Part shown: piece by piece, positions 1 through 33,463 of the stretch | Numbering within the stretch: position 1 is the stretch's first letter | Layout: the number at the start of each line of letters is the position of its first letter | NCBI GenBank assembly: GCA_964512925.1 | Contig: CAZEKH010000002.1 | Span: forward strand, 57,831 to 121,830 | Source of the DNA: an uncultured Candidatus Saccharibacteria bacterium | Lineage (GTDB): Bacteria > Patescibacteriota > Doudnabacteria > UBA920 | Direction: 5' to 3' | Length of the DNA stretch: 64,000 bases | Program-made: the position numbers and the translations under genes | The notes under the pieces: generated by a model | Seen by the model: only the letters and a program-made list of their open reading frames with translations | Database searches by the model: none | Told to the model about the DNA's origin: nothing

Positions 1-326
1 CCCAAAGCCCCGGCCCTGGCTAATGCTACTGCCATTTCACTCTCTGTAACCGTATCCATAGGCGAGGAGATTATGGGTAAATTTAAACATATCCCCTTAC
101 CCAAATCTATTCTTAAATCTGTTTCTTTGCGGGAACGGATAGCAGATCGTTTGGGTACTAACAAAACATCGTCAAAAGTTATGCCGCTTGCCCAATTTTC
201 AGGAGATTGTTGCATTCGATTTAAACAGCTAATAAGCTGTAAATAAAATATCGCTCAAACTGATGTCTTAAAATATCTTATCACTTTCAGATCAAAACAC
301 CAACATAACAACTTTCAAACCAAATC

Positions 327-941
327 TTATTTTCCTTTCAGTATTTTAGTAAGTAGCTCTCTATATTTATCTGCCATTTTTTCATAACCTTTGGCATTGG
401 GGTGGATGGCGTCATACATCAAATCTTTTTTTCCCAAAATCCCGCCCAAAACATCGTCCACATAGTTTACTTCTAGCTCAGAAGCCAACTTTCTATAAGC
501 GCTGTTATAGTTTCCCAAAACACCTCCGCTGATTCCGCTTAGTACAACTGTTGAGCCGGTATTTTTTATCTCCAGTATCATCTCCCGCAAATTCCCCAAG
601 GTTTCTTCTTTAGGGTAGCGCCTTAGTATGTCGTTGCCGCCTAAAACTATGATCACGATTTTTGGCTCTTTTTCCAACACATCTTTTTTAAGCCTGAGCT
701 TGGCTGTACTGGTAGTGTCCCCGCTTAGTCCGGCATTAAGCACTTTTACTCCCAGCTTTTTTTCCAACTGCGCCACGAAATTGTCTTTCTCAGTGGCGCC
801 CACCCCATAGACCAAACTGTCGCCAAAAGCAATAATATTTGTCCCAGAGGTAGGAAAATATATTTTTTCACCGCTTGAAAAAAACCATAGAGCGGTAAAA
901 AATAAAAGCAATATAGCTATAACCACATAAACAATACGCAT
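327..941 (-). CDS. SGNH/GDSL-family hydrolase (lipase/acylhydrolase-like) with N-terminal membrane anchor
   Basis: Motifs FGDSLVYG (GDSL block), GGNDIL and DAIHPN (DxxH) in the order typical of SGNH hydrolases. N-terminal hydrophobic helix. Confidence 0.8.
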   Translation of the reverse strand: MRIVYVVIAILLLFFTALWFFSSGEKIYFPTSGTNIIAFGDSLVYGVGATEKDNFVAQLEKKLGVKVLNAGLSGDTTSTAKLRLKKDVLEKEPKIVIIVLGGNDILRRYPKEETLGNLREMILEIKNTGSTVVLSGISGGVLGNYNSAYRKLASELEVNYVDDVLGGILGKKDLMYDAIHPNAKGYEKMADKYRELLTKILKGK

Positions 942-1077
942 AAAAACTGGTATTACATTAAAATGTATCTATTCTTCAAAACCTACAAAAAAAGTTTTTC
1001 TAGGGACGCTCACCTGCTCCTAAACTCATATCGTCTCTTTGTTCTACTGGACCATAGAATGGAACCTTTGCATCAGA

Positions 1078-1281
1078 CTATTTAATGTGGATATAAATCC
1101 TTTGGGTGGCGCCTTCTTTTTTTGCATCATCCAAATGATAAATATCTACTTTTCTTCCATCCAGAACAGCGTCACGAATTCTAGGTTCAAATTGTACAGC
1201 AGGTGGTTCATTCATAACCATAATATCGGTAAAGGGTCGAAGCTGATCTGTTAAACCTTTTTTTCTATTGCCTCTTTCCAA
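1078..1281 (-). CDS. hypothetical small protein (67 aa)
   Basis: Intact ORF with plausible composition. No recognisable motif. Confidence 0.35.
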   Translation of the reverse strand: MERGNRKKGLTDQLRPFTDIMVMNEPPAVQFEPRIRDAVLDGRKVDIYHLDDAKKEGATQRIYIHIK

Positions 1282-1566
1282 AATTCATAACCCTTCCATA
1301 TTTCGTTGTTTATTATTTCGTTCATATTTTTATGAATTAATTGATGATTTATTTAATCCAACATCATTATATCACTAAATATTGCTATCGTACTGCCTGC
1401 TAATATAAAAATCTCAATGAATACTGGTTGATTGGAATATATTGATAACCCCTCCTTCCCCGCCACAACAGATATAAATAGATGGTCGGGAAATTATATC
1501 TCTCAAATAATAAAAAAGAGCGGCCGTCGGTTGCCCGGCTGGTCGCCCTTGAACTTAGTCAGCCCA

Positions 1567-1884
1567 TCACTGCTTCTTGGGCGGATTGTTTGGGTCTTCA
1601 CCCAAGCTGATTTTCATACTCTTCATGAACCTCTGATCTTCCGATGTAAAATTCGGCTTGCCGCCTCCGGTGGTTGCCGACGGTCGTGGGCTTTCAGGCT
1701 TTCCCGTGGAAGCGTCATCCTGTTTCTGAAAGCCAATTGTACACTCGAGGATCAGAAAAACTTCGTAGCCTGCTTTCTGAATTGCCTCGATAGCTTCCGC
1801 AATGCGTTCGCTCCCGGACAGCGCATCATTGATCGCCTGGCCAAGTTCCTGCATCAGTCTTTGCAGCTTTTCATCCATTGCCAT
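1567..1884 (-). CDS. hypothetical acidic helical protein (about 105 aa)
   Basis: ORF trimmed to the ATG preceded by AAGGAGG (MAMDEKLQRL...). The plus-strand ORF 1432..1950 has antisense-like composition. Confidence 0.45.
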   Translation of the reverse strand: MAMDEKLQRLMQELGQAINDALSGSERIAEAIEAIQKAGYEVFLILECTIGFQKQDDASTGKPESPRPSATTGGGKPNFTSEDQRFMKSMKISLGEDPNNPPKKQ

Positions 1885-2499
1885 TGTTATTGCCTCCTTG
1901 CGGCTGATAAAACATTTAACATTACCATAAAAACGGACTATGGTCAATAGCCTGCTGACTTAATACTTACAACTACCAAATACCAAAAAAGCGCTACCAT
2001 AAAAGGTAGAGCTTTTTCTTTGGCTCCGACTCTGGGACGGTTTTCGAACTGCTAAATGGGCTAAATTACTGGAATTCCCAGAATTAACTAGCGCTGCTAT
2101 ACAAAATTTACTGTTTATAAATTAACGTGCGGAATTTCGTCTGTTTCTTTCCTGTGCATCTGCAACACGTCTAGCGTCTTCAGTTTTTTCAGTACTATGT
2201 TCAATACGGGTTTTAGTATCAACATTTGGCAACAATGGGGCAACAATGGGGACATGACCCATTATTCATTATTACTTACTTTGTACAAAATAAATGGCTC
2301 CTGACCCTTTTTGGTTTTTCCGAACAAGTGGAATAGCTACCGCAATTTGAACTGGCAGGAGCAGTATCCGGCGTTTGATACAATAAAGGCCGATTTAGAG
2401 GAGATTTTGGCTGTTAAATAAATTCTGGACAAGTGGGAGGGGGAAGGATTTTTTAAGAAAATCTAATTTAGGTTAGGCGGGGTACCATGGATAATAGTT

Positions 2500-3660
2500 T
2501 TAAGCTAAATTATCGAACTTTCTTTTTTGGTGCTTTTGAACAAGACTATTAAAATACCTAATACCAAGAGAGTCAAATTCAAACCCCACATACTTTATCG
2601 GAGTTACCCTTAGGTCGTCCACCCAACTTTTCCAATGAATATCTCCCCCTAATATTATTTTTCCAAAACCTTCATTTATTTGAATATTTAAACACGCAAT
2701 AAAAAAGTATAAGGCAATATCAAAATGTCTTTGCCACGTGCCAAATATATATTCTTTCGGTTTAGGCATTAAACCATGAGCAATATGATTTCTAAGTGTA
2801 AAAAATCTATCCGCCCAAATTTCTTTCTTTGTCCCGACTTCAAACTCTTTTATCGCACCATCTCTTTCCGAACTGTAACGGTATTTTTTATCAGTTTTAT
2901 TATTTAGATTATTTTTAATAAAATTTTTTACTTTTCTTCTACCTTTCCCCGGCAGGATCCCGAGCAGAACTTCGAAAGCCGATGCTTGTAATAAAATTCT
3001 AGCATTATGGCTTATTTGCGATGAGTTATAATAACTCTCATAAAACAACTCAATAGCTGAAATTATTCTCCTAAAATATTTTGGTTTTTGTTTCCTTAAA
3101 CGTATAAGTGCATCGAACAAATCTTGATCCACTTCTCGGAATAAGGGAGTTGGCACGTATCGAGGGCGAATTGTTTTGTTCTCTTTTATATCAATTCCCC
3201 CATGACCCATAGGGACTGCAAAACCACCCCATTCAGTCATATAATCACTATCTAAAACTATTGAAAAATGTATCTTTTCAAAATTATCAGAACTTGCCAT
3301 CCAGTGACTAGAATTAACATTTCTTTTAATAGTGTTCGATCTCGACAAAAAACTAATAAATAGAATTAGCCTGGCATCATTAGCTTTAACTTGGTCGGTT
3401 TTGTTAAATTCCCTAAAGTCATTCTTACCGACTTGAATTAGTCCTACCCCTCTAACGCGATAACCCTCATGTGTTTTATAATTAGCAAGCACAAGGTCAA
3501 TTTTGGCTTTTAACTGTTCGTCGGTAATGTATTTTTGATTACTAGTGTCAAAATTCCATATTTTTGCAAAACCAAAGTCTATCTCACGAACGTCACTTAA
3601 AGTTAAATAAGGTAGGCAAATAAAAAAGAATCTTTTATTCTGTGGCTGTGGTATAGTCAT
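2500..3660 (-). CDS. hypothetical protein with C-terminal R-x4-H (RNHIAHG) motif; possible HEPN/Abi-like protein
   Basis: 386-aa ORF in a very AT-rich stretch. LRNHIAHG fits the R-x4-6-H HEPN signature. Assignment is speculative. Confidence 0.45.
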   Translation of the reverse strand: MTIPQPQNKRFFFICLPYLTLSDVREIDFGFAKIWNFDTSNQKYITDEQLKAKIDLVLANYKTHEGYRVRGVGLIQVGKNDFREFNKTDQVKANDARLILFISFLSRSNTIKRNVNSSHWMASSDNFEKIHFSIVLDSDYMTEWGGFAVPMGHGGIDIKENKTIRPRYVPTPLFREVDQDLFDALIRLRKQKPKYFRRIISAIELFYESYYNSSQISHNARILLQASAFEVLLGILPGKGRRKVKNFIKNNLNNKTDKKYRYSSERDGAIKEFEVGTKKEIWADRFFTLRNHIAHGLMPKPKEYIFGTWQRHFDIALYFFIACLNIQINEGFGKIILGGDIHWKSWVDDLRVTPIKYVGFEFDSLGIRYFNSLVQKHQKRKFDNLA

Positions 3661-3760
3661 TTTTCTATTCTGATAGGTTTGATTAACTGGGAAAAATTAT
3701 TATTTGGAAAATTTATGGCTTTTTTTGGAAACTTAAAATGTTTAAGTTTTTGCATATTTT

Positions 3761-4222
3761 TTATTCATTTAAACGTTTCCAAATAACTTTGCTACCTTTC
3801 CCCTCTATATTACCAGTTTCAGAATCGTACTCATTAACAGACCACGAAAATATTTGCCATCCGTAACCATCGTACAAATATAACTCATCTCGACTAATTA
3901 TTTTATTCTCGCCATTACTGAATAACATCTTATTATTGGCAATATAAGGAAAATCCGGATTACCTGTTTTATTAAACTCAGTATCATCCCCCGAATAATG
4001 AAAACCTTGCTGATCAGTAATCATGTCAACAAAAGATTGTTTGCTTTCAGGAGGCAACTTTTTATAAAAGTTAGTATTATCAAAACTTTTGATTGCAGTT
4101 TGGTATGGATCTTCACCCGATTCCCTATTTGCATTCCAAAAAACTAAAGTCAAAATTATTGCGACCAGTACGACAATTAAAATTTTAAACCAATTTTCTT
4201 TTAAAAATCTCATACAGTGCAA
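3761..4222 (-). CDS. hypothetical N-terminally membrane-anchored protein
   Basis: 153-aa ORF with a single N-terminal TM helix (ILIVVLVAIILTLVFW). First of three tandem similar-architecture genes. Confidence 0.5.
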   Translation of the reverse strand: MHCMRFLKENWFKILIVVLVAIILTLVFWNANRESGEDPYQTAIKSFDNTNFYKKLPPESKQSFVDMITDQQGFHYSGDDTEFNKTGNPDFPYIANNKMLFSNGENKIISRDELYLYDGYGWQIFSWSVNEYDSETGNIEGKGSKVIWKRLNE

Positions 4223-4227
4223 ATATT

Positions 4228-4707
4228 TTATTCTGGATTAGAAATCTCAAACAGTTCATGTTTTCTAGCCAAATAATCCTTTTGTTGTTGTAAATTGTAA
4301 TTAACCAACTCCATATCCATCTCGTTTGTTATGTTTGATGTATACGATGCTTCAAAAACATTTGTTTTTAAATTTTTTATAAATCTATATTCTTGAGAGC
4401 CATTACCAGAAAAAAATGTAATTGTGCCTGTTTCCACAAAGCACGTAGATTCTTTTTCATTATAGTGGAATCTAGCTGGAATTATTGTTTTATTGAGTAA
4501 GCTAGATTTTTCATCACGCTCATATTTCTCAAAAAATTCATTGCCAATTTTTCGGCATGCATCTTCATTTTCTAAAAGCTCGTCCTTAACTAGTTTGAGC
4601 TGTTTTTGTTTTGGGACAATAACTAAATAATTATAAAATGAGTAAGTTATTATTAACCCACATATTAGTAAAAAAATCTTTGTCCAGTTTCCTTTTACCC
4701 AATTCAT
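4228..4707 (-). CDS. hypothetical N-terminally membrane-anchored protein
   Basis: 159 aa with N-terminal TM helix. Tandem with neighbours at 5-bp spacing. Confidence 0.5.
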   Translation of the reverse strand: MNWVKGNWTKIFLLICGLIITYSFYNYLVIVPKQKQLKLVKDELLENEDACRKIGNEFFEKYERDEKSSLLNKTIIPARFHYNEKESTCFVETGTITFFSGNGSQEYRFIKNLKTNVFEASYTSNITNEMDMELVNYNLQQQKDYLARKHELFEISNPE

Positions 4708-4712
4708 AATAA

Positions 4713-5207
4713 TTATTTTGCGGGTTTAATTTTTCCAATATAAATATAATAAAAAATCCATTTAGGTACTTGTAAGAAAAACCATGCTAGCGCTAAAGAA
4801 AAGGGTGCGTATAGCAAAAGCCATAAAAGGGATGCTGGTTTCTGATGATTTTTGTCATATAAATCAAGGTCTAATTTTGAAGATTCGCTTTCACCGTAAA
4901 TCTCTTTAAAAACATAGGGTGAGTAGCTAGTCATTCGTTTTATAACCTTATCTGAAATTTCTTTAGTATTGAACCCCGCTTCTTTAAGATCCTTTATTTC
5001 TTTAATTTGTTTGTTGGTAGTATCCTGTTCTTTCAAATACTCTTGCCTATCCTCATTAAGCTTAATCCCAACACTAATACTTGATAGAACGGCTAACCCG
5101 AAACAAAAAATGGCAAAACATACATATAAAACTTTTAAAGTTCTATACCATGCTTTGCTATTTAAATAGCTGAGTGATTTGATTTCCATGACTGTATTAG
5201 TACACAT
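4713..5207 (-). CDS. hypothetical membrane protein (two TM segments)
   Basis: 164 aa with hydrophobic helices near the N- and C-termini. Confidence 0.5.
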   Translation of the reverse strand: MCTNTVMEIKSLSYLNSKAWYRTLKVLYVCFAIFCFGLAVLSSISVGIKLNEDRQEYLKEQDTTNKQIKEIKDLKEAGFNTKEISDKVIKRMTSYSPYVFKEIYGESESSKLDLDLYDKNHQKPASLLWLLLYAPFSLALAWFFLQVPKWIFYYIYIGKIKPAK

Positions 5208-5612
5208 TTAGTCTATACCTAAGCCATAAATTTGTAAATATGACTAAAACAGTCTTTTTTAGAGGTACTTAAAAACCTTTACCTCTTAAGCAACTTTCAT
5301 ATTCTAGTTTAGGGGTTTGAGCCCACCAATTTTTTTCTGGTTGTGCTAATTGTGGTATTTCTGGACAAGAAGCACGGCACCAAAAATCCTCGCATTTTAG
5401 ACGACATGCATTTGCTGTATCAAATTGTTCTTGTAGGAAACAAAGGGGTCAGGAGCTTTTTTATAAGAGTTTTTTGTTGGCTCCCTCCTTCGTCCCGATG
5501 ATCATCGGGACTACGGCGGACAGGCTGGGATTCCGTTTTGCACCCGAACCCCCGACCAACCAAGGGATGGTGCCGGGAGTTTTCCTATCGGAAAAAACGA
5601 GGGTATAGCCTA

Positions 5613-5882
5613 TTATTTCTTCCAAGGATTTTGTTTAAAGTAGTCTTCCAAAACTTTTTCTAACTCTTTCTTACCATTTCCGCCTTTGAGGTACAATTCT
5701 CTGCGTTTGGCATCCGACTCTAGTAGAAAAGCTTCGTAGTGGATGAGAGTTAAAGGACGGCGGTGTTTGGTAGCGGTTACAAAACCTGATTCGTGAGATT
5801 TTATTCTACTTTTCAAGTCAGGAGTGTAACCAGTATATAGAAGTCCATCTTTCTGACTATGTAATACATATATATAAAACAT
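5613..5882 (-). CDS. GIY-YIG nuclease superfamily protein (full length, 89 aa)
   Basis: YIYVL...DGLLYTGYT.DL..R...H...G matches the GIY-YIG motif arrangement of small UPF0213-like nucleases. Confidence 0.75.
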   Translation of the reverse strand: MFYIYVLHSQKDGLLYTGYTPDLKSRIKSHESGFVTATKHRRPLTLIHYEAFLLESDAKRRELYLKGGNGKKELEKVLEDYFKQNPWKK

Positions 5883-5991
5883 ATTAATATTTTACCATAA
5901 AGAAAAACCATCCTGAGATGGTTTTTCTAACTTACTATGCTAAACGTATCTATGGCTCACCCGCTGAGCGGGTGTATAGCCACGCTTAGCG

Positions 5992-6066
5992 TGGCTCGGG
6001 AGCTGGGATTCGAACCCAGGACCCATCGGTTAACAGCCGATTGCTCTACCGCTGAGCTACTCCCGA
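5992..6066 (-). tRNA. tRNA-Asn (anticodon GTT), CCA encoded
   Basis: Hand-folded cloverleaf: acceptor TCGGGAG/CTCCCGA, D-arm GCTC..GAGC, anticodon stem ATCGG/CCGAT with loop CTGTTAA, T-arm CTGGG-TTCGAAT-CCCAG, discriminator G plus CCA. Confidence 0.85.
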
Positions 6067-6302
6067 ATGATATTTTTCATTTGTCTTCTACCAGATGCAC
6101 TTTTGAAAAATTTTTCTCTTAGACGTGCATCTTGCAAATTATTATATTCTTCAAAATATATTAACTTCCAAGGTGCATACCTTTTTGTATAAAAATGTTT
6201 TTTTGAATTGTGCTCACTGAGTCTAATTTCTAAAGTTCTATCTGTACTACCAACATAAGTTTTTTTATAGTTCAAGCTTTTTAAAATATAGAGGTAAGGC
6301 AT
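6057..6302 (-). CDS. GIY-YIG nuclease superfamily protein (81 aa); last codons plus stop lie in tRNA-Asn 5' acceptor stem
   Basis: YLYILKS...KTYVGST.D...R..EH motif. C-terminus ...NIIRE is encoded by ATTCGGGAG, and the TAG stop is tRNA positions 8-10. Confidence 0.7.
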   Translation of the reverse strand: MPYLYILKSLNYKKTYVGSTDRTLEIRLSEHNSKKHFYTKRYAPWKLIYFEEYNNLQDARLREKFFKSASGRRQMKNIIRE

Positions 6303-6380
6303 AAATTTTTTGCTCTACCCGCCTCGACTCCCGAAGCTCGTCTTCGGCGAGGCGGGCCGCTGAGCTACCAGCCTCGACGT
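6303..6380 (-). repeat. tRNA-Asn D-arm-like fragment (GGTAGCTCAGCGG...TAGAGCA) interrupted by a perfect 9-bp-stem palindrome (CCCGCCTCG...CGAGGCGGG)
   Basis: Minus-strand sequence reproduces the tRNA D-arm flanking a 39-nt hairpin insertion. It sits between two GIY-YIG ORFs. Confidence 0.45.
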
Positions 6381-6575
6381 CTAGGCGGGCTCCCGAATAT
6401 TTTCGTCAAGCCATTTACGACCCTGACCAGACTTTAAAAACTTTTCTCTTTTTAAAGCCTCGCTTTTAGTAGTAAATGATTCGTTATAAATTAAAATCCA
6501 AGGTCTATTTTTAGGAGTAATAATACTGACCTGCCTCCAACCAGCTTGCGGATGGCAGAACTCCCGAATATCCAA
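6381..6575 (-). pseudogene. truncated GIY-YIG nuclease gene (C-terminal half only, fused to a leftover ...IRE end of another copy)
   Basis: RPWILIYNESF...ALKREKFLKSGQGRKWLDENIRE aligns with the C-terminal half of the 6057..6302 protein. The N-terminal GIY-YIG block is absent, and MDIRE at the start repeats the IRE/ATTCGGGAG terminus. Confidence 0.5.
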
Positions 6576-6699
6576 ATGTTAAACTAACTTTAGATAGTTT
6601 AACACCTATTACTTTTTTTTTCAATAGTTATAAAGGTCTGATATAATATACCGGACGATGAAATAATTACAATACTTTTTTGAACTTTAAAATATTATT

Positions 6700-7188
6700 A
6701 TGCAAATAAATTTTATAAATCCGGAAATATCCGTCATTATAACAGGGATGTTGCCGATTTTTGAAGTGCGGGGAGCTTTGCCTTTGGCATTGTTTTACTA
6801 CCACTTTTCCCCTCTCAAATCCTACCTATTGTCGGTTTTTGGCAACCTCCTGCCCATCCTTCCCCTGCTTTTTGGCCTAAAAATCTTTTCTGAATATTTG
6901 GCTCATAAAGTCTACTTTTTAAACAGGCTCTTAAACTGGCTTTATGAAAAAACCAGGCAAAGGCACGGAGACCATTTTGAATCCTATTCCTGGGCGCCTT
7001 TTGCCCTGTTTGTTTTTGTTGCCATCCCCATACCCTTAACTGGAGCTTGGAGCGGTATTTTGGCTGCCATCACTTTTGGTATTCCTTTTTGGCGGTCTTT
7101 TATTGCTATTTCTGCCGGAGTTTTGGTGTCAGGTGCAGCAGTTCTTGCGATTTCCTTGTTAGGCTTAAATTTTAAAGAAATATTTTAA
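6700..7188 (+). CDS. small polytopic membrane protein (possibly putative small multidrug export family)
   Basis: 162 aa with about 4 TM helices. An IPIPLTGAWSG-like motif is recalled from the Sm_multidrug_ex family. Family assignment is tentative. Confidence 0.5.
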   Translation: MQINFINPEISVIITGMLPIFEVRGALPLALFYYHFSPLKSYLLSVFGNLLPILPLLFGLKIFSEYLAHKVYFLNRLLNWLYEKTRQRHGDHFESYSWAPFALFVFVAIPIPLTGAWSGILAAITFGIPFWRSFIAISAGVLVSGAAVLAISLLGLNFKEIF

Positions 7189-7213
7189 ATTTTATTAATC
7201 CCAAACACTTTTT

Positions 7214-7633
7214 ATGAACATGTTCAAACCAACAAATCAAAAAACTATTTCCGGCTATTTAAACGCCCTGGTCCCAGAGCGAAAAAAATCTGTGGTTTTT
7301 CTGCATAACTTCATACAAAAAACCGTACCCAAACTAAAACCGCATTTTGCCTACAACATGCTGGGCTACGGAACTTTTCCTTACACCAACTACAAAAAAC
7401 AGATCGTAAATTGGCCAGTGGTTGCTTTGGCTAGTCAAAAAAATCACATTAGCATCTATGTCTGCGCGCTGGATGCCGGTAAATATCTGGCAGAAAAATA
7501 CAAAAAAGATTTGGGAAAAGTCAGTGTCGGCAAAAGCTGTATTCGTTTTAGAAAACTGGAGAATTTAAATCTTGATATGTTAAAAAAAATATTAAAGCTG
7601 GCAGCTAAAAATCCGGGCTTGGTTTTAAAATAA
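7214..7633 (+). CDS. DUF1801/YdhG-like domain protein
   Basis: 139-aa soluble protein whose pattern resembles the YdhG/DUF1801 family. Weak assignment. Confidence 0.45.
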   Translation: MNMFKPTNQKTISGYLNALVPERKKSVVFLHNFIQKTVPKLKPHFAYNMLGYGTFPYTNYKKQIVNWPVVALASQKNHISIYVCALDAGKYLAEKYKKDLGKVSVGKSCIRFRKLENLNLDMLKKILKLAAKNPGLVLK

Positions 7634-7689
7634 ACATTTTAGAGTGTTTCAAAAACAGGATAAATTTCAATTTATTCATATACAAAAAT

Positions 7690-7720
7690 ACCCAGCCCGT
7701 TTAAAAGGGCTGGGTATTTT
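7690..7720. terminator. rho-independent terminator hairpin between convergent genes
   Basis: ACCCAGCCC-GTTTAAAA-GGGCTGGGT followed by ATTTT. Lies between the 7214..7633 (+) and 7729..8487 (-) genes. Confidence 0.6.
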
Positions 7721-7728
7721 ATAAAAAT

Positions 7729-8487
7729 TTATTTTAACTCAACGTTGGAACTGATCTTAACTGTAAACAAATCATCAATAAACCCGTCAGCAACTTTGCT
7801 GGAGGCGTAAGTGATCCCCCACAATGTCCTATCCAGCTTGGTTTCTGCGGTAAAAACAGCTGTCTGTCCGCTTTGTACGACAGTGCCGGAAAACACGACT
7901 GGTTTGGTTAAGCCTTTTAAAGTCAGATTGCCGGAAAATTCGTAAGTTTGCTTGCCTGAAGATTCAGAAACTAACTTTGCGGAAGAAATATTCAACTCGC
8001 CAGTAGGATATTTTTCCACATCAAAAAAATCCGGGCTTTTGAGATGGCCGGAAAGCTTATCCTGCCCGTCGCCTTTGCCGGTTGTCAAAGTTTCTATGCT
8101 TGCCATATTTAAAACAGCATTAGCTGAGACAATTTTTCCATCCTTATAAAGCACATTGCCGGAAGAAATATCTATTTTACCCGCATCTTCATAGCCTGCC
8201 ACCAAAGTTTTTCTGCCTATCCAGGCCAATTTGGTATTTTGGGAGGTTAAAGCGACACTGCCAGAAAAAGCAGTCGCTTGAGCCGGCACAGAAGGAGTCA
8301 CAGAAACTGCCGGGGTCGGAGTGGCCGCAGCGTTTGTCGGCTGCTCCGTATTTTTACCATTTAAATCCTGTAAATAGCTATCTACGGCGTCTGAAGTTTG
8401 CTTATTGTAATATCCGGAATAGGCATAGACACCGCCCAGACCCAAAACTAATATTCCTAACACTATACCAATGGCTTTTTTGCTCAT
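7729..8487 (-). CDS. YceI-like domain protein (polyisoprenoid-binding family), N-terminally anchored
   Basis: N-terminal TM or signal helix and a Thr/Pro-rich linker. C-terminal region has a YceI-like pattern (NLTLKGLTKPVVF...). Confidence 0.65.
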   Translation of the reverse strand: MSKKAIGIVLGILVLGLGGVYAYSGYYNKQTSDAVDSYLQDLNGKNTEQPTNAAATPTPAVSVTPSVPAQATAFSGSVALTSQNTKLAWIGRKTLVAGYEDAGKIDISSGNVLYKDGKIVSANAVLNMASIETLTTGKGDGQDKLSGHLKSPDFFDVEKYPTGELNISSAKLVSESSGKQTYEFSGNLTLKGLTKPVVFSGTVVQSGQTAVFTAETKLDRTLWGITYASSKVADGFIDDLFTVKISSNVELK

Positions 8488-30478: not shown

Positions 30479-33463
30479 TTACGATCTTATATATTTCTCG
30501 TCTCTAATATCGAAAGCCGGCAATGTACCCTCAAGTACATCGGAAGCCTTTTTATTTATATCGCAATTCTCGATACTGCCGAATGTATATCTGATCTGAT
30601 TTTTCTGTTTATTCATCGAGGCGGCGATGATCTGTTCAGCATCACAGACGATAGCCAAGTTGGGATTGTGGGTAACAATGATAACCTGTCTTTTTAGTTT
30701 TGCTTTCCGGATATACGGCACCAAAAGTTCAAAAATCGACTCGTTGTCGAGATTTTCCTCCGGCTGATCCATAATTAAAGGTCCACGGTCTTTATCGATC
30801 AGCAAGTAGAAAATCAAGAGAAGGGCACCCTTTTCACCCGGAGAGAACTCGTTGCTGTTCAAGTCCTTGCCGTTGAATAAAACTTTATATTTAACATCGA
30901 GATAATCTAAACCAAAGACGTAATCGTAGAATGAGACATTGTCACCCTTCAGTTGAGAGCAGATCGTGTTCTGTTTTTCTGGGGTCTTTGTCTTGTCGCT
31001 CGTAAGGTGATCGATCAATTCCTGCCTGAACGCCTTGACTCCGATAGGATTTGAAAAATCAGCTTTCTCGATAACCTTGCCGAGTATCTTTTGCCCGTTA
31101 TCGGCATACTGAAAGCTTCCATCACGACCCTGATTTATGAACCCTAAGAATTTAGCTGGGAATGATGCCTTGTCGAATACAATGCCTGCATCGAACTCGA
31201 GCATGCTACCCGTTTTCTGTTGCGTTTCTTTTTCTGACTCGATGAATTTTTGGAGAGGCATATAAACCTCTTTGTAAAATTCGCTTTTTTGTTGAAGTCC
31301 GGAATATAGCTTGTCGGACAGACCATCTCTGCTTACCATCGCCGCCTTCAGATCGGCATGAATTTTTTTATCAAGGTATTTTATTTCAGCCTCAATTGAT
31401 TTGATGGTCTCAAAAGTTTGATCATCGGCCGTTCCTTCAATCTCTTTTTTGCGCTCATTGTATTCCTTGAGTTTGTCTTGATAGGTCGAATATTTTCTCT
31501 GATCCTCACCAAGAACATCGATCAGTTTTTTCTTTTGACCTTCCAGCTCCAATTTCTTAGCATACAAACTGGTAGACGAAGTTCCGTTCTGATCAAGAAG
31601 TACGGTCAGCTTATCTCTTTTTGTGGTGAGCTTACTTTCTGTCGATTCAAGGATTTTGCTATGGACTGTTACCGTAAATAATTTTGTAAGGTCGATCGAA
31701 AGAAGTTTTGCGTCATCCGCAAAATCTCTTGAAATACTATCTGCACTTTGGGAGAGACGTTCAACTGCCGCCTTTAATTTTCCGAGTTTCAGGATCTTAT
31801 CGTTTACCGATTTGAGCGTGGCTTTTGTAGTATCTATTCTTGTTGAGACGGTCCCGATCTCGGTGGTTATTTTTGCGAGTTTATCTTGATCGCTTTTCTT
31901 GGGCTGTTTTTTGGGAGCCTGCACAGCTTTCGGCTTGGCCAGACTATTTAGTTCCTGCTGTTTGGCTTTGAGTTTGTTGCTCAGTGTTTCAAGATACTTA
32001 GGCAGTAGTTTATTTTCTAATTTTACGATCTCCTCGTTGGACAGATGTAAATCATTCTTGATCTGAGTGAGATTGCCATCGATTGTCGAGGTCTTGATGC
32101 GGATAAGGTCTTCAAGTGTAGTCGCTCCAAGTCGGCTCTCATCGGGGATATAAGAAAAAATAACTTTGTCTACTTCTCTCTGAAACTGGGTACTGACACC
32201 ATCTTCGTTGCATATCGTCTCAACGTATTTCTGCGGTAGATATTTAACTTTCTCAACTTCGGCCGGATTAACTTCGGCATCAAGATTTTCGGTGACTGAC
32301 GTCTTATCCAGCCAAGTCAAAACCGCCTCGTAATTTTTGGCGAGTCCTTTCTTTCTGAATTTGTCCTTATTAAGAAAGGAGAAATCCTTCGGTGCTATTT
32401 TGGTTCTTCCACAAAGAGCGATGATGTCATTCAGAGCACTTTTGCCTTGACCCTTTCTGCCTATGATCGCTACCAGTCCGGGGTTTAAGGGTATATCATC
32501 GTTGAACCAACCGGAGACTTGTTTGCCATCTGTATTACGGACATTTATAGATTCGATGAATCTCGAACTATTTGATTCAACGTCCATCAATTTATCCGGT
32601 TTGTCACCAAAGAATGTTCGTTCTCTCGGTTCGTGAGTAATCTGCCGCAAACCCTCGAAAGTTTTGTCTGCTTTTATCCAAGTCGGATAAGTGTGCCTGC
32701 CTTCATTTAAAAACGTCTTGCCGACCTTATCATCAAAATCTTTGAAAGAGTGTGCGTCGCTCCCTGAAACACACGGTTTTTTCTTTTTTACCTCGCCGCG
32801 ATCATTAAGGAAAAATTCTCTGTCCTTATCGTCACAGCCAAAGTAAATATCCGCCACTCGTTTGTCAGTTTCTTCGGCGACTGCGTTTTTTCTTGAATTA
32901 TTTTTTTCCGGTTGGAGACCTCCATGACCATGAGCCATTAGTATTCTAAAATAGGGCTTCTTGTCTCCAAAGGTATCCTTAAGAGCCTCGTCGATGAGCG
33001 GAATTGTTGTAAAGGCAGTTTTGAAATCACTGTCGGTTTTAAGCTCGTTCGCCTTTTTCTTCTTGCCGTTTCCGTCCGTATTTTCCAACTTCAAATTGGA
33101 CAAGAAGCTCTGCAAATCTTTGTCGGGTAGTTCATTGTTAAAAATAAGATGCAGATCATAGCCCTCATTGTGACTATTGGACGAACGATCGACTCGCAAT
33201 TCTACATTTGGGAAAAACACCTTTTCGGATTTTGGATATTTGGCTTGAAATTTCTTTTTGAATTCCAGATAATTCTCGACTGAAAAATAATCGGTAATGC
33301 CGAAAACTTCCACGTCTGATCGCTCAACCTTGTCGCAGAATTCAGCCCAGACATCACCGCCGTTGGCCAGGGCGTATCCGTTGTTTAATTTGGTAAAAGG
33401 CACGTGGAGATGTAAATCCCACTTTCGCCATTCTGAACCTTTTGGATAAGCTAAATTGCCCAT
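30479..33463 (-). CDS. PHP-domain + SMC/ABC-type ATPase fusion protein (architecture of the Ppl defence protein)
   Basis: PHP motifs DLHLH, GITDY, PNVELRV, GSDAHS. Walker A GRKGQGKSAL, about 350-aa coiled coil, signature FSPGEKGALL, Walker B LIMDQPEENLD, H-loop VTHNP. Confidence 0.75.
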   Translation of the reverse strand: MGNLAYPKGSEWRKWDLHLHVPFTKLNNGYALANGGDVWAEFCDKVERSDVEVFGITDYFSVENYLEFKKKFQAKYPKSEKVFFPNVELRVDRSSNSHNEGYDLHLIFNNELPDKDLQSFLSNLKLENTDGNGKKKKANELKTDSDFKTAFTTIPLIDEALKDTFGDKKPYFRILMAHGHGGLQPEKNNSRKNAVAEETDKRVADIYFGCDDKDREFFLNDRGEVKKKKPCVSGSDAHSFKDFDDKVGKTFLNEGRHTYPTWIKADKTFEGLRQITHEPRERTFFGDKPDKLMDVESNSSRFIESINVRNTDGKQVSGWFNDDIPLNPGLVAIIGRKGQGKSALNDIIALCGRTKIAPKDFSFLNKDKFRKKGLAKNYEAVLTWLDKTSVTENLDAEVNPAEVEKVKYLPQKYVETICNEDGVSTQFQREVDKVIFSYIPDESRLGATTLEDLIRIKTSTIDGNLTQIKNDLHLSNEEIVKLENKLLPKYLETLSNKLKAKQQELNSLAKPKAVQAPKKQPKKSDQDKLAKITTEIGTVSTRIDTTKATLKSVNDKILKLGKLKAAVERLSQSADSISRDFADDAKLLSIDLTKLFTVTVHSKILESTESKLTTKRDKLTVLLDQNGTSSTSLYAKKLELEGQKKKLIDVLGEDQRKYSTYQDKLKEYNERKKEIEGTADDQTFETIKSIEAEIKYLDKKIHADLKAAMVSRDGLSDKLYSGLQQKSEFYKEVYMPLQKFIESEKETQQKTGSMLEFDAGIVFDKASFPAKFLGFINQGRDGSFQYADNGQKILGKVIEKADFSNPIGVKAFRQELIDHLTSDKTKTPEKQNTICSQLKGDNVSFYDYVFGLDYLDVKYKVLFNGKDLNSNEFSPGEKGALLLIFYLLIDKDRGPLIMDQPEENLDNESIFELLVPYIRKAKLKRQVIIVTHNPNLAIVCDAEQIIAASMNKQKNQIRYTFGSIENCDINKKASDVLEGTLPAFDIRDEKYIRS

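Follow-up and report, generated by a model that had tools for sequence, protein, structure and literature searches.

Background

The transfer RNA (tRNA) gene cluster of phages T4/T6 contains segB, which encodes a free-standing GIY-YIG homing endonuclease that cuts within tRNA-containing DNA and promotes the co-inheritance of the region, and which drives tandem amplification via microhomology of the tRNA 5′ end with the 3′ end of its own gene (PMC2330249; PMC13096335). In the literature, the prokaryotic Slx1-like clade of GIY-YIG proteins is presented as vertically inherited enzymes of the repair type (Dunin-Horkawicz et al. 2006, PMC1564403), and group I introns are known to occur in Patescibacteria genes for tRNA-Asn and for tRNA-Asp (PMC13011429). 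Here we describe a tRNA-Asn locus in a stretch of 64,000 nucleotides (nt) from an uncultured Candidatus Saccharibacteria bacterium (contig CAZEKH010000002.1, positions 57,831 to 121,830; the whole stretch is referred to as the window), in which an intact tRNA gene is flanked on both sides by small GIY-YIG nuclease genes and by broken pieces of the same tRNA.

We consider it probable that this locus is a pile-up of selfish, homing-like cassettes of minimal GIY-YIG nucleases, which rebuild the tRNA that they target. The observations behind this proposal are the anatomy of the locus, its recurrence in other genomes, the existence of both empty and occupied sites, and the conservation and covariation of the cassette hairpins. 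Related loci and contigs used for comparison, about 100 overall, are denoted by L-numbers.

Organisation of the tRNA-Asn locus

All features of the locus are read on the minus strand of the window (Table 1). The 5′-side cassette separates the tRNA from its own promoter, and the first bases of the tRNA supply the last codons and the stop codon of the open reading frame (ORF). In the window this ORF, G2, ends in ...NIIRE-TAG, its last codons ATT CGG GAG TAG being tRNA positions −2 to 10, with the last 10 nt corresponding to tRNA positions 1–10 and the stop codon to U8-A9-G10. Further upstream the truncated gene G3 ends in ...ENIRE, encoded by the second copy of ATTCGGGAG (6390–6398), and the interval from G3 to G2 reads ATTCGGGAG / cccgcctagacgtcgaggctgg / TAGCTCAGCGG / cccgcctcgccgaagacgagcttcgggagtcgaggcggg / TAGAGCAA, which is tRNA positions 1–26 plus two inserts. 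The hairpin at 6318–6356, which is found once in the 64 kb (0 expected), has perfect outer arms of 9 bp plus an inner 6-bp hairpin and is imperfect overall, and the cccgcctagacgtcgaggctgg insert is a shortened look-alike of it (repeat families D9 and D14). There are exactly three copies of CTCCCGAAT in the 64 kb, starting at 6060, 6390 and 6561, with 0.57 expected by chance; three copies were reached in 2/100 shuffles, and never so clustered. The outermost of the three tRNA 5′-end copies is the oldest, and the stem-loop directly behind it is presumed, by analogy with the other cassettes, to be the hairpin remnant of the oldest cassette. The promoter-like site upstream of this copy is presumably the native tRNA-Asn promoter, now about 530 nt 5′ of the tRNA.

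On the other side of the tRNA, the 3′-side cassette consists, in this order, of two CGCTNAGCG hairpins, of which the first pairs with the NCCA end of the tRNA, a repeat of the tRNA end, a terminator, the ORF (G1) and a decayed 3′ part of the tRNA. Hairpin 1 (GCCACGC-TAA-GCGTGGC) can be extended to 8 bp, its 5′ arm being the discriminator base and CCA of the tRNA. The TAAAAT box shortly before the G1 start codon is a possible promoter for G1 alone, which would give a leaderless mRNA. The blocks of the decayed tRNA copy are arranged as TGGTCGGGGGTTCG [12] AATCCCAGC [13] TCCCGA [23] GCCA, with the insert lengths in square brackets, and are followed by the native trailer AACAAAAAAC, which is shared with L097; this copy scores 41 in alignment against a null of 18.2 ± 3.5 with a maximum of 30 (1756 windows). 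A reading of the region 5420–5612 as a novel structured RNA gene is rejected, as the region aligns as an interrupted tRNA-Asn 3′ part; its folding alone is unremarkable (z = −2.1). An Rfam search of 18 loci at gathering thresholds and of the window locus at E up to 1 assigned no known RNA family to hairpins, leaders or 5420–5612. No GIY-YIG-like sequence besides G1, G2 and G3 was found in the 64-kb window. As the G2/G3 cassettes lie 5′ of the tRNA, and the G1 cassette and the 3′-part copy lie behind it, the tRNA-Asn gene has been colonised from both sides.

Table 1. Features of the tRNA-Asn locus, listed 5′ to 3′ along the minus strand of the window
Feature	Position	Strand	Basis
Promoter-like site TTGAAA-17 nt-TAAACT, with TG	6596..6624	-	Position and sequence homologous to promoter of relative L096
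Outermost tRNA-Asn 5′-end copy, ATTCGGGAG, tRNA positions −2 to 7	6561..6569	-	Sequence match
GC-rich stem-loop CTGCC...GGCAG directly 3′ of outermost tRNA piece	6531..6558	-	Sequence read
G3, GIY-YIG C-terminal remnant (43 codons)	6390..6518	-	Pfam 4e-4; 44% identical to G2 residues 39-81
Degenerate 22-nt hairpin insert cccgcctagacgtcgaggctgg, between leftover tRNA positions 7 and 8	6368..6389	-	Repeat analysis
Leftover tRNA piece TAGCTCAGCGG, positions 8-18	6357..6367	-	Exact 12-nt match to tRNA positions 7-18
Cassette hairpin, candidate phyla radiation (CPR) type, CCCGCCTCG...CGAGGCGGG, 39 nt, in D loop of leftover fragment	6318..6356	-	Inverted repeat
Leftover tRNA piece TAGAGCAA, positions 19-26, end of duplication	6310..6317	-	Match to tRNA
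Spacer aaaattt, 7 nt	6303-6309	-	Between TAGAGCAA and G2
G2, intact 81-amino-acid (aa) GIY-YIG gene of 5′-side cassette	6057..6302	-	Pfam; catalytic residues conserved
Intact tRNA-Asn(GTT)	5992..6066	-	ARAGORN; Rfam tRNA 72.5 bits
Hairpin 1 of 3′-side cassette, AGCCACGC-TAA-GCGTGGCT	5978..5996	-	Kept in 7 loci
Hairpin 2, CACCCGC-TCA-GCGGGTG, then GAGCCA repeat of the tRNA's last bases	5953..5974	-	Covariation
Terminator-like A/T-flanked hairpin	5901-5928	-	Inverted repeat I10
TAAAAT box, 6 nt 5′ of G1 start codon	5889-5894	-	Sequence read
G1, intact 89-aa GIY-YIG gene of 3′-side cassette	5613..5882	-	Pfam; 138 relatives
Decayed tRNA-Asn 3′-part copy (positions 44-76), colinear blocks, three inserts	5478..5558	-	Alignment score

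A preliminary description of this DNA had already listed the intact tRNA-Asn(GTT), the complete GIY-YIG gene downstream of it, the second gene ending on tRNA positions 1–10, the truncated third copy ending in ENIRE and the pair of hairpins at the CCA end, and all of these are borne out by ARAGORN, Rfam, Pfam and the sequence itself. Its three occurrences of a 9-mer are likewise present, with the third starting at 6561 instead of 6560, and so are the D-arm fragment and the hairpin that splits it, of which only the outer 9-bp arms form the perfect palindrome that had been reported. G1 had been taken for a further copy of the same element, and is instead part of a distinct, mirror-image cassette with its own hairpin pair.

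ORF-tRNA junctions in other genomes

A scan with an alignment of G2 and five relatives, restricted to one genome per species, yielded 80 loci from Patescibacteria, Bacteroidota, Ignavibacteria, Omnitrophota and some metagenome-assembled genomes labelled Gammaproteobacteria. These contain 101 plus-strand GIY-YIG segments, and for 52 of them a tRNA on the same strand starts within 40 nt of the stop codon; by our own estimate of about one tRNA gene per tens of kilobases, adjacency by chance would be expected in far fewer than 1% of cases. At 34 of the 52 junctions the tRNA contains the stop codon, most commonly as TAG at positions 8–10 (10-nt overlap) or as the TAG of the D-arm (23-nt overlap), and the closest relatives of G2 have C-termini reading ...IRE, ...VRE or ...AVAQW, the latter being GTAGCTCAGTGGTAG translated in frame. 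The tRNAs at the junctions were assigned by ARAGORN to 14 types (Arg, Asn, Gln, Gly, Leu, Lys, Met, Ala, Phe, Pro, Ile, Thr, Glu and Ser). The Ser call at L035 is an artefact on a hairpin-disrupted 3′ piece of tRNA-Leu, which leaves 13 amino acid identities. The junction of ORF and tRNA is the rule and not an accident, and the cassettes are not specific to tRNA-Asn.

A duplicate of the tRNA 5′ part, counted as exact copies of at least 8 nt of the tRNA that follows the ORF, is present within 160 nt 5′ of the ATG at 50/52 junctions, versus 2/52 controls. The common layout is tRNA position 1 to x, a GC-rich hairpin of 20–40 nt, tRNA position x+1 to about 26–40, a spacer (0–30 nt at 49 of the 52 junctions, up to 67 nt) and the ATG. 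The leftover copy starts at position 1 and reaches about position 31 in the median, usually with no more than one mismatch, and the hairpin inserts (20–40 nt) cluster at tRNA positions 5–9 (acceptor/D junction), 15–22 (D loop) and 32–36 (anticodon loop). Fragments with two hairpins are found in L047, L049, L072, L098 and the window, and tandem hairpins in L024. Two features were uninformative or were not used: the base at tRNA position −1 is T at 30/52 ORF junctions versus 18/34 other tRNAs, and a pooled test for fragments with tRNA 10-mers was positive in 26% of control windows, for which reason its 'class C' calls are not relied on. At L037 (2400–2432), an older GIY-YIG gene has been reduced to its last eight codons (GREYLKRL-stop), located between the stop codon of the upstream gene and the tRNA fragment, an example of the degree of erosion that old copies can reach.

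The proteins show fidelity to the type of tRNA, as the nearest neighbour from another locus is at the same tRNA type in 27/40 cases, with 18% expected by chance. This fits elements which carry a tRNA part, and can therefore replace only their cognate tRNA, with occasional switches.

The hairpin-broken pieces could also belong to a split, permuted or intron-bearing tRNA, in which the pieces are joined at the RNA level and the hairpins act as small introns; the preliminary description had named a processed or permuted tRNA as a possible alternative. The loop positions of the hairpins do recall the sites of non-canonical archaeal tRNA introns, and full-length hairpin-bearing tRNA copies exist at a few loci (L049, L058); group I introns are moreover present in tRNA genes of Patescibacteria (PMC13011429; L101, L107). 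We nevertheless give this explanation almost no credence, since a complete, uninterrupted and high-scoring tRNA (72.5 bits) is present in the window next to extra pieces that duplicate positions 1–26 and 44–76, while most hairpin-bearing copies elsewhere are 5′ or 3′ fragments that are unable to form a tRNA. No intron or ribozyme family was detected by Rfam in the window between 4800 and 7200 at E up to 1, and we know of no bacterial enzyme for such hairpin introns.

The 3′-side cassette

GIY-YIG segments located just downstream of an intact tRNA were found in 13 further cases. In seven loci (L033, L034, L035, L041, L050, L075 and L082) a copy of the 3′ part of the same tRNA lies behind the ORF, with a hairpin in the T loop of the copy (GGTTC / hairpin / GATTCC...), and the conserved C-terminus ...GSLPD of this type is encoded by GGTTC plus the hairpin arm. 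Judged by its sequence, G1 belongs to a separate, highly conserved clade, with 138 relatives; among the 120 listed, the best 48 are 70–92% identical, and where the sources give names, these include several named Patescibacteria lineages. The G1-type gene was 3′ of a tRNA in every context fetched (L096, L101–L107), the tRNA being Asn, Gln or an intron-bearing tRNA.

At the junctions of the G1 type, the discriminator base and CCA pair into CGC-TNA-GCG-TGGN, which is followed by a second CGCTNAGCG-type hairpin and then by a repeat of the last 6–7 tRNA bases. In seven sequences of this hairpin pair, 99% of cells pair and 5/15 pairs have compensatory changes, a result that no shuffle reached; the pair formed by the discriminator base covaries with the tRNA, being G-C at tRNA-Asn and A-U at tRNA-Gln, and hairpin 2 has compensatory changes in 4/7 pairs. 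As in the window, the tRNA-Asn loci L096, L101, L103 and L104 have a terminator-like hairpin and an A/T-rich box before the ATG, the box being TAAAAT in L096, L103 and L104 and poorer in L101.

Two of these loci contain group I introns (L101, 983–1310, and L107, 1059–1282; Rfam 63.7 and 76.5 bits) inside the tRNA directly 5′ of the G1-type cassette. L101 has a 5′-side GIY-YIG gene as well (85 aa, 711–968), which amounts to three kinds of selfish DNA on one tRNA-Asn. Downstream of the tRNA-Asn of L093 and L097, loose copies of a tRNA 3′ end (GGGAGCCA / CTCCCGAGCCA) and T-arm-like pieces are located behind a terminator, with the GIY-YIG gene being absent; these may be scars of lost 3′-side cassettes.

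Hairpins as parts of the cassette

The stems of the cassette hairpins differ by clade, with CCCGCCTCG...CGAGGCGGG in candidate-phyla genomes and the window, and CCTGCCTGCCGGCAGGCAGG in Bacteroidota; many loci have the stem of the window at the corresponding position. Most hairpins (63/72) lie within 200 nt of a GIY-YIG segment, a zone which makes up 17% of the sequence. Twelve loci with different tRNAs retain the 20-mer CCTGCCTGCCGGCAGGCAGG unchanged, and as the proteins of these loci are only 27–68% identical, the hairpin sequence is either under strong constraint or repeatedly renewed. The hairpin may be a recognition site for the nuclease, may protect the dead fragment, may make repeat-mediated deletion less frequent, or may keep the precursor from misfolding.

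Such conservation also raises the question of whether the palindromes themselves are the mobile or recognised unit. The enzyme would then recognise the hairpin, either as a dimer on the palindrome or as a cruciform or hairpin, and would help insertion at single-stranded spots of tRNA-shaped DNA; hairpins would survive only in redundant tRNA fragments, being lethal in a working tRNA, and the duplication of ORF plus tRNA would be a separate event. A separate palindrome does go with each protein clade (CCCGCCTCG..CGAGGCGGG for the G2-like proteins, CCTGCCTGCCGGCAGGCAGG for the Bacteroidota relatives, CGCTNAGCG for the G1-like proteins), the 20-mer is kept across divergent proteins as described above, fragments carry one to three hairpins, sometimes in tandem (L024, L050, L056, L107 and the window), and the insert sites coincide with cloverleaf loops. 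GIY-YIG restriction enzymes are furthermore described as acting on palindromes as dimers or tetramers (PMC2241918). We nonetheless judge this account improbable: only 9/72 hairpins are located away from cassettes, several of those beside tRNAs, no sign of independent hairpin movement was seen, and a hydrolytic GIY-YIG nuclease is unable to join DNA itself, while co-inheritance of hairpin and ORF in a single cassette would also give clade-specific hairpins.

Empty sites, occupied sites and stacks

The preliminary description had suggested comparing tRNA-Asn loci of other genomes for presence and absence of the nuclease genes. A metagenome scan for the exact tRNA-Asn sequence returned 16 contigs, all with an identical tRNA-Asn 5′ part, of which 14 lack a GIY-YIG gene and two are occupied (L096 and L098), in addition to the window. 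Empty sites usually have a TAAAAT or TAGAAT box about 15–40 nt 5′ of tRNA position 1. L096 carries a G2-like gene (65%) and a G1-like gene (82%) and none of the genes that flank the locus in the window, and L098 has a different protein with a hairpin of the Bacteroidota type. In L091 (3020–3169) and L092, which have the same sequence, an otherwise empty site has a GC-rich, hairpin-forming insert of about 150 nt between promoter box and tRNA; this insert is unlike the cassette hairpins, and next to it on the downstream side lies a DUF1801 gene with 67% identity to window 7214–7633.

More than one copy is present at 17/83 loci, and the outer or upstream copies are often 5′-truncated, like G3. 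G2 and G3 are 44% identical, yet the adjoining tRNA pieces match the tRNA at 26/26 positions, and since duplication in situ followed by drift would not produce this combination, G2 and G3 are best seen as separate arrivals. At L052 the leftover piece and the intact tRNA are different variants, with six differing positions, among them compensatory changes in the D-stem. The leftover piece is the same as the tRNA-Arg variant found in sister genomes with the same upstream gene, and one of the two copies was therefore imported. L052 has its Flavobacteriaceae tRNA-Arg(TCG) locus in common with L017, L024, L037 and L047. In L045 (2740–4400), a tRNA-Glu is followed by five to six copies of the GIY-YIG gene, and between these lie runs of an approximately 25-nt repeat (gtctccttcggagccgggtaaaccac) embedded in tRNA-Glu fragments.

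Stacks could alternatively arise by local amplification and decay, with a resident module of GIY-YIG gene and tRNA being inherited vertically and duplicated by unequal crossing-over between short tRNA-derived repeats, perhaps stimulated by the nuclease as in phage SegB. Near-identical tandem units in L063 (3 copies), L050 (3) and L045 (5–6) are of the kind this predicts, SegB amplifies tRNA-plus-segB units through microhomology that the tRNA 5′ end shares with the 3′ end of segB, and clustering of the proteins by tRNA type is expected under vertical descent too. As a general explanation we find it unlikely, as it does not account for the divergence of G2 and G3 next to unchanged tRNA pieces, for the two tRNA variants at L052, or for the fact that most genomes with the same tRNA-Asn are empty. 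It also sits poorly with L096, which has both cassettes of the window in the company of other genes, and with the 70–92% identical relatives of G1 (among those listed) in distant Patescibacteria lineages, at different tRNAs.

The encoded GIY-YIG proteins

Both intact proteins match the Pfam GIY-YIG family (PF01541), G2 with 7.8e-15 (55.4 bits) and G1 with 7.3e-14 (52.3 bits; cut-off 22.6), and are 30% identical to each other. The G3 match (ORF 6381..6575; 4e-4, 20.9 bits) covers profile positions 43–70 only, in agreement with G3 being the C-terminal half of the domain, without the GIY, YIG, Arg and His motifs; tblastn gave 44% identity of G3 with G2 residues 39–81, and 40% with G1. Residues Y5, Y16, G18, R27, H31, E51 and E63 are invariant across 14 aligned sequences, and the nuclease is active-looking in its catalytic residues. 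The catalytic domain is all that G1 and G2 contain, with one Pfam match each and no DNA-binding domain, and the NCBIfam group I intron endonuclease model gives a score of only 14.4 bits, with its cut-off at 56. A clade-profile search of PDB gave 1zg2 (BH0048, 1.7e-12) and 1ywl (EF2693, 3.4e-12) as best matches, followed by SLX1 (1e-5 to 2e-3), I-TevI (0.04) and UvrC (0.5), which places the proteins, as far as profile similarity goes, in the minimal prokaryotic Slx1-like/UPF0213 clade and not in the I-TevI or UvrC branch. A single-sequence search of PDB gave no match, searches of PHROGs and PADLOC returned nothing meaningful, and no relatives were found in viral contigs.

Membership of this family allows for a nuclease which serves the host at tRNA genes, for example through removal of R-loops or cruciforms where tRNA genes are very highly transcribed, or through action on tRNA precursors, with the tRNA-like hairpin leader being regulatory and nothing in the locus selfish. 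Slx1-like proteins are structure-specific repair nucleases, the family includes a fusion to a TrmH-type tRNA methyltransferase, for which earlier authors proposed a role in RNA metabolism (PMC1564403), and ORFs and catalytic residues are well conserved. Such a host factor is, however, very unlikely in our view, as the gene is absent from most genomes with the same tRNA, the copies stack and decay, the tRNA served differs between genomes, and a host factor has no need for a dead tRNA fragment alongside.

The exact sequence of G2 has no database record, and exact look-ups of G1 and of the neighbouring Sm_multidrug_ex protein led to nothing but short contigs from the same strain (Logan SRR14271332 and SRR14271336), which yield no information on polymorphism. 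The breaks of these Logan contigs (L001, L002, L083 and L084) fall exactly at the repeated tRNA pieces and inside the palindromic hairpin. As short-read contigs break within tRNA repeats and hairpin, the cassettes fragment assemblies at tRNA loci.

Proposed mechanism and its difficulties

For the selfish, homing-like cassettes that we favour, we infer cleavage, target recognition, recombination route, co-transcription and hairpin function from the arrangement of the loci. The nuclease would break a cognate tRNA gene that has no cassette, and the break would be repaired from a cassette-bearing copy, with tRNA sequence serving as homology on both sides. The cassette would be copied in along with a replacement part of the tRNA, restoring the gene; the host would retain a working tRNA, and the displaced, hairpin-carrying tRNA piece would be dead. 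Because the intact tRNA is rebuilt, the same site could be hit again, and such re-hits would push the older copies outward to decay, resulting in the order G3, G2, tRNA. The 5′ cassette of the window lacks a promoter of its own, and as the only good minus-strand site lies 5′ of the outermost fragment, the ORF is probably transcribed from the tRNA promoter, after which the tRNA would be freed by RNase P. In the overlap class, the RNase P cut would remove the stop codon of the ORF, as can be deduced from established RNase P biology, which should limit production of the nuclease.

The idea of repeated, site-directed insertion with decaying older copies was already part of the preliminary description, and it gains from the recurrence of the cassettes, the empty and occupied sites and the 44% identity of G2 and G3; cleavage and homing remain conjectural parts of it, and its anatomy needed correction. 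The duplicated segment goes beyond the 9-nt piece of the acceptor stem: it comprises positions 1 to about 26, or to about 31 as the average at other loci, and a cassette-specific GC-rich hairpin interrupts it in every case. The break points are inside the tRNA (acceptor/D junction, D loop, anticodon loop) and not at its 5′ end.

Several points weigh against the favoured explanation. Cleavage, transcription and transfer are for every member deduced from sequence. A catalytic domain of 81 aa without a DNA-binding domain is unlikely to be a sequence-specific homing enzyme, known Slx1-type enzymes being structure-specific. The rebuilt tRNA is identical to the target, so that immunity of a genome with the cassette to its own nuclease is not obvious. 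The strictly conserved palindromes are located in the cassette and not in the empty target; if they are the nuclease site, the donor would be cut, unlike in classic homing. The empty tRNA-Asn sites are from other species with different flanking genes rather than from the same population, the arrays L063, L050 and L045 are better explained by unequal crossing-over, and the link between protein clade and tRNA type could in part result from vertical inheritance. Finally, with no relatives in viral contigs there is no obvious vector.

A more far-reaching version, which we put forward tentatively and with clearly less confidence, is that the cassettes represent unrecognised but widespread minimal mobile elements, each an autonomous unit of an Slx1-like GIY-YIG nuclease of about 85 aa and a cognate palindromic hairpin, which target loop positions of tRNAs, rebuild the tRNA, spread between distant bacteria and have their expression tied to transcription of the tRNA. 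The loop positions would in that case probably be recognised as DNA structure rather than as sequence, the spread would include Patescibacteria, Bacteroidota and others, and expression would be cut short by removal of the stop codon by RNase P.

If mobile, the cassettes would be among the smallest self-contained selfish DNA units, with one nuclease domain of 80–90 aa and a hairpin in about 0.3–0.4 kb, and would represent a new way to inhabit an essential gene without intron or integrase, by supplying a spare gene part. They would account for the frequency with which 'GIY-YIG nuclease family protein' genes occur next to tRNA genes in Bacteroidota and candidate phyla, as well as for many tRNA fragments and assembly breaks at tRNA loci, and would provide a concrete, testable role for the UPF0213/Slx1-like family, which is large and of obscure function. 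The strict pairing of clade and palindrome suggests compact and possibly programmable nucleases specific for structures or palindromes, and the overlap of tRNA and ORF would be a natural case of RNase P processing versus translation of an upstream ORF.

Surroundings of the locus

The first part of the window (1–8000) has a GC content of 36–37%, versus 42–50% in the remaining window. Downstream of the tRNA-Asn locus (about 2500–5207) there are small ORFs without a Pfam match and one weak Apea-like HEPN match, and this stretch may be an island adjoining the tRNA. A 994-aa ORF at 30479–33463 on the minus strand matches AAA_21 and SMC_N ATPases, an ABC-type ATPase as found in defence systems.

Comparison with known systems

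The cassette architecture was not described in the full-text literature searched, which covers few subscription journals, such that its absence there is not proof of novelty. The best sequence relatives of solved structure, the UPF0213 proteins 1zg2 (BH0048) and 1ywl (EF2693), are of the same size and have no extra domain, and the account of their clade in PMC1564403 mentions no link to tRNA genes, hairpins or mobility.

The REP/RAYT and IS200/IS605 systems share with the cassettes the combination of a small gene with conserved GC-rich palindromic hairpins, but use HUH/Y1 transposases and have hairpins genome-wide, whereas here a GIY-YIG gene is the sole ORF and the hairpins are confined to the cassette, that of the 5′ cassette occurring once in the 64 kb. 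Integrase-borne islands and prophages resemble the cassettes in that the element brings along part of the tRNA and leaves the gene intact, with a leftover partial copy marking the other end. They rely on tyrosine integrases, span many kilobases and usually duplicate the tRNA 3′ end as a plain direct repeat, while the cassettes are about 0.3–0.4 kb, occur on either side of the tRNA and have a leftover copy broken by a conserved hairpin. The nuclease is the only ORF of the cassettes, and the five neighbouring ORFs tested had no integrase domain, the low-GC region 1–5200 having been partly examined.

Group I introns are likewise selfish DNA in tRNA genes that leaves tRNA function intact, and are known from the same tRNA (Asn) in the same phylum. 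Their tRNA is interrupted by a ribozyme and restored by splicing, whereas here there is no ribozyme, the tRNA is uninterrupted, and function is kept by duplication of a part. Introns and cassettes meet on one tRNA in L101 and L107, with the introns located beside the cassettes and not being part of them.

SegB is the closest functional precedent. Like the genes described here, it is a GIY-YIG gene beside tRNA genes, and the junctions of ORF 3′ end and tRNA 5′ end and the stacks at our loci resemble the amplification driven by SegB. Presence and absence at a conserved site, as is typical of such homing genes, was found between species (14 empty, 2 occupied), while G1 and G2 have no DNA-binding module joined to the catalytic domain. 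We know of no report of SegB loci with hairpin-broken partial tRNAs, or of an ORF stop codon formed by tRNA bases 8–10. SegB is a larger phage protein with extra DNA-binding regions, from the I-TevI/UvrC-like branch, whereas the cassettes encode Slx1-like proteins of 81–89 aa and are located on bacterial chromosomes.

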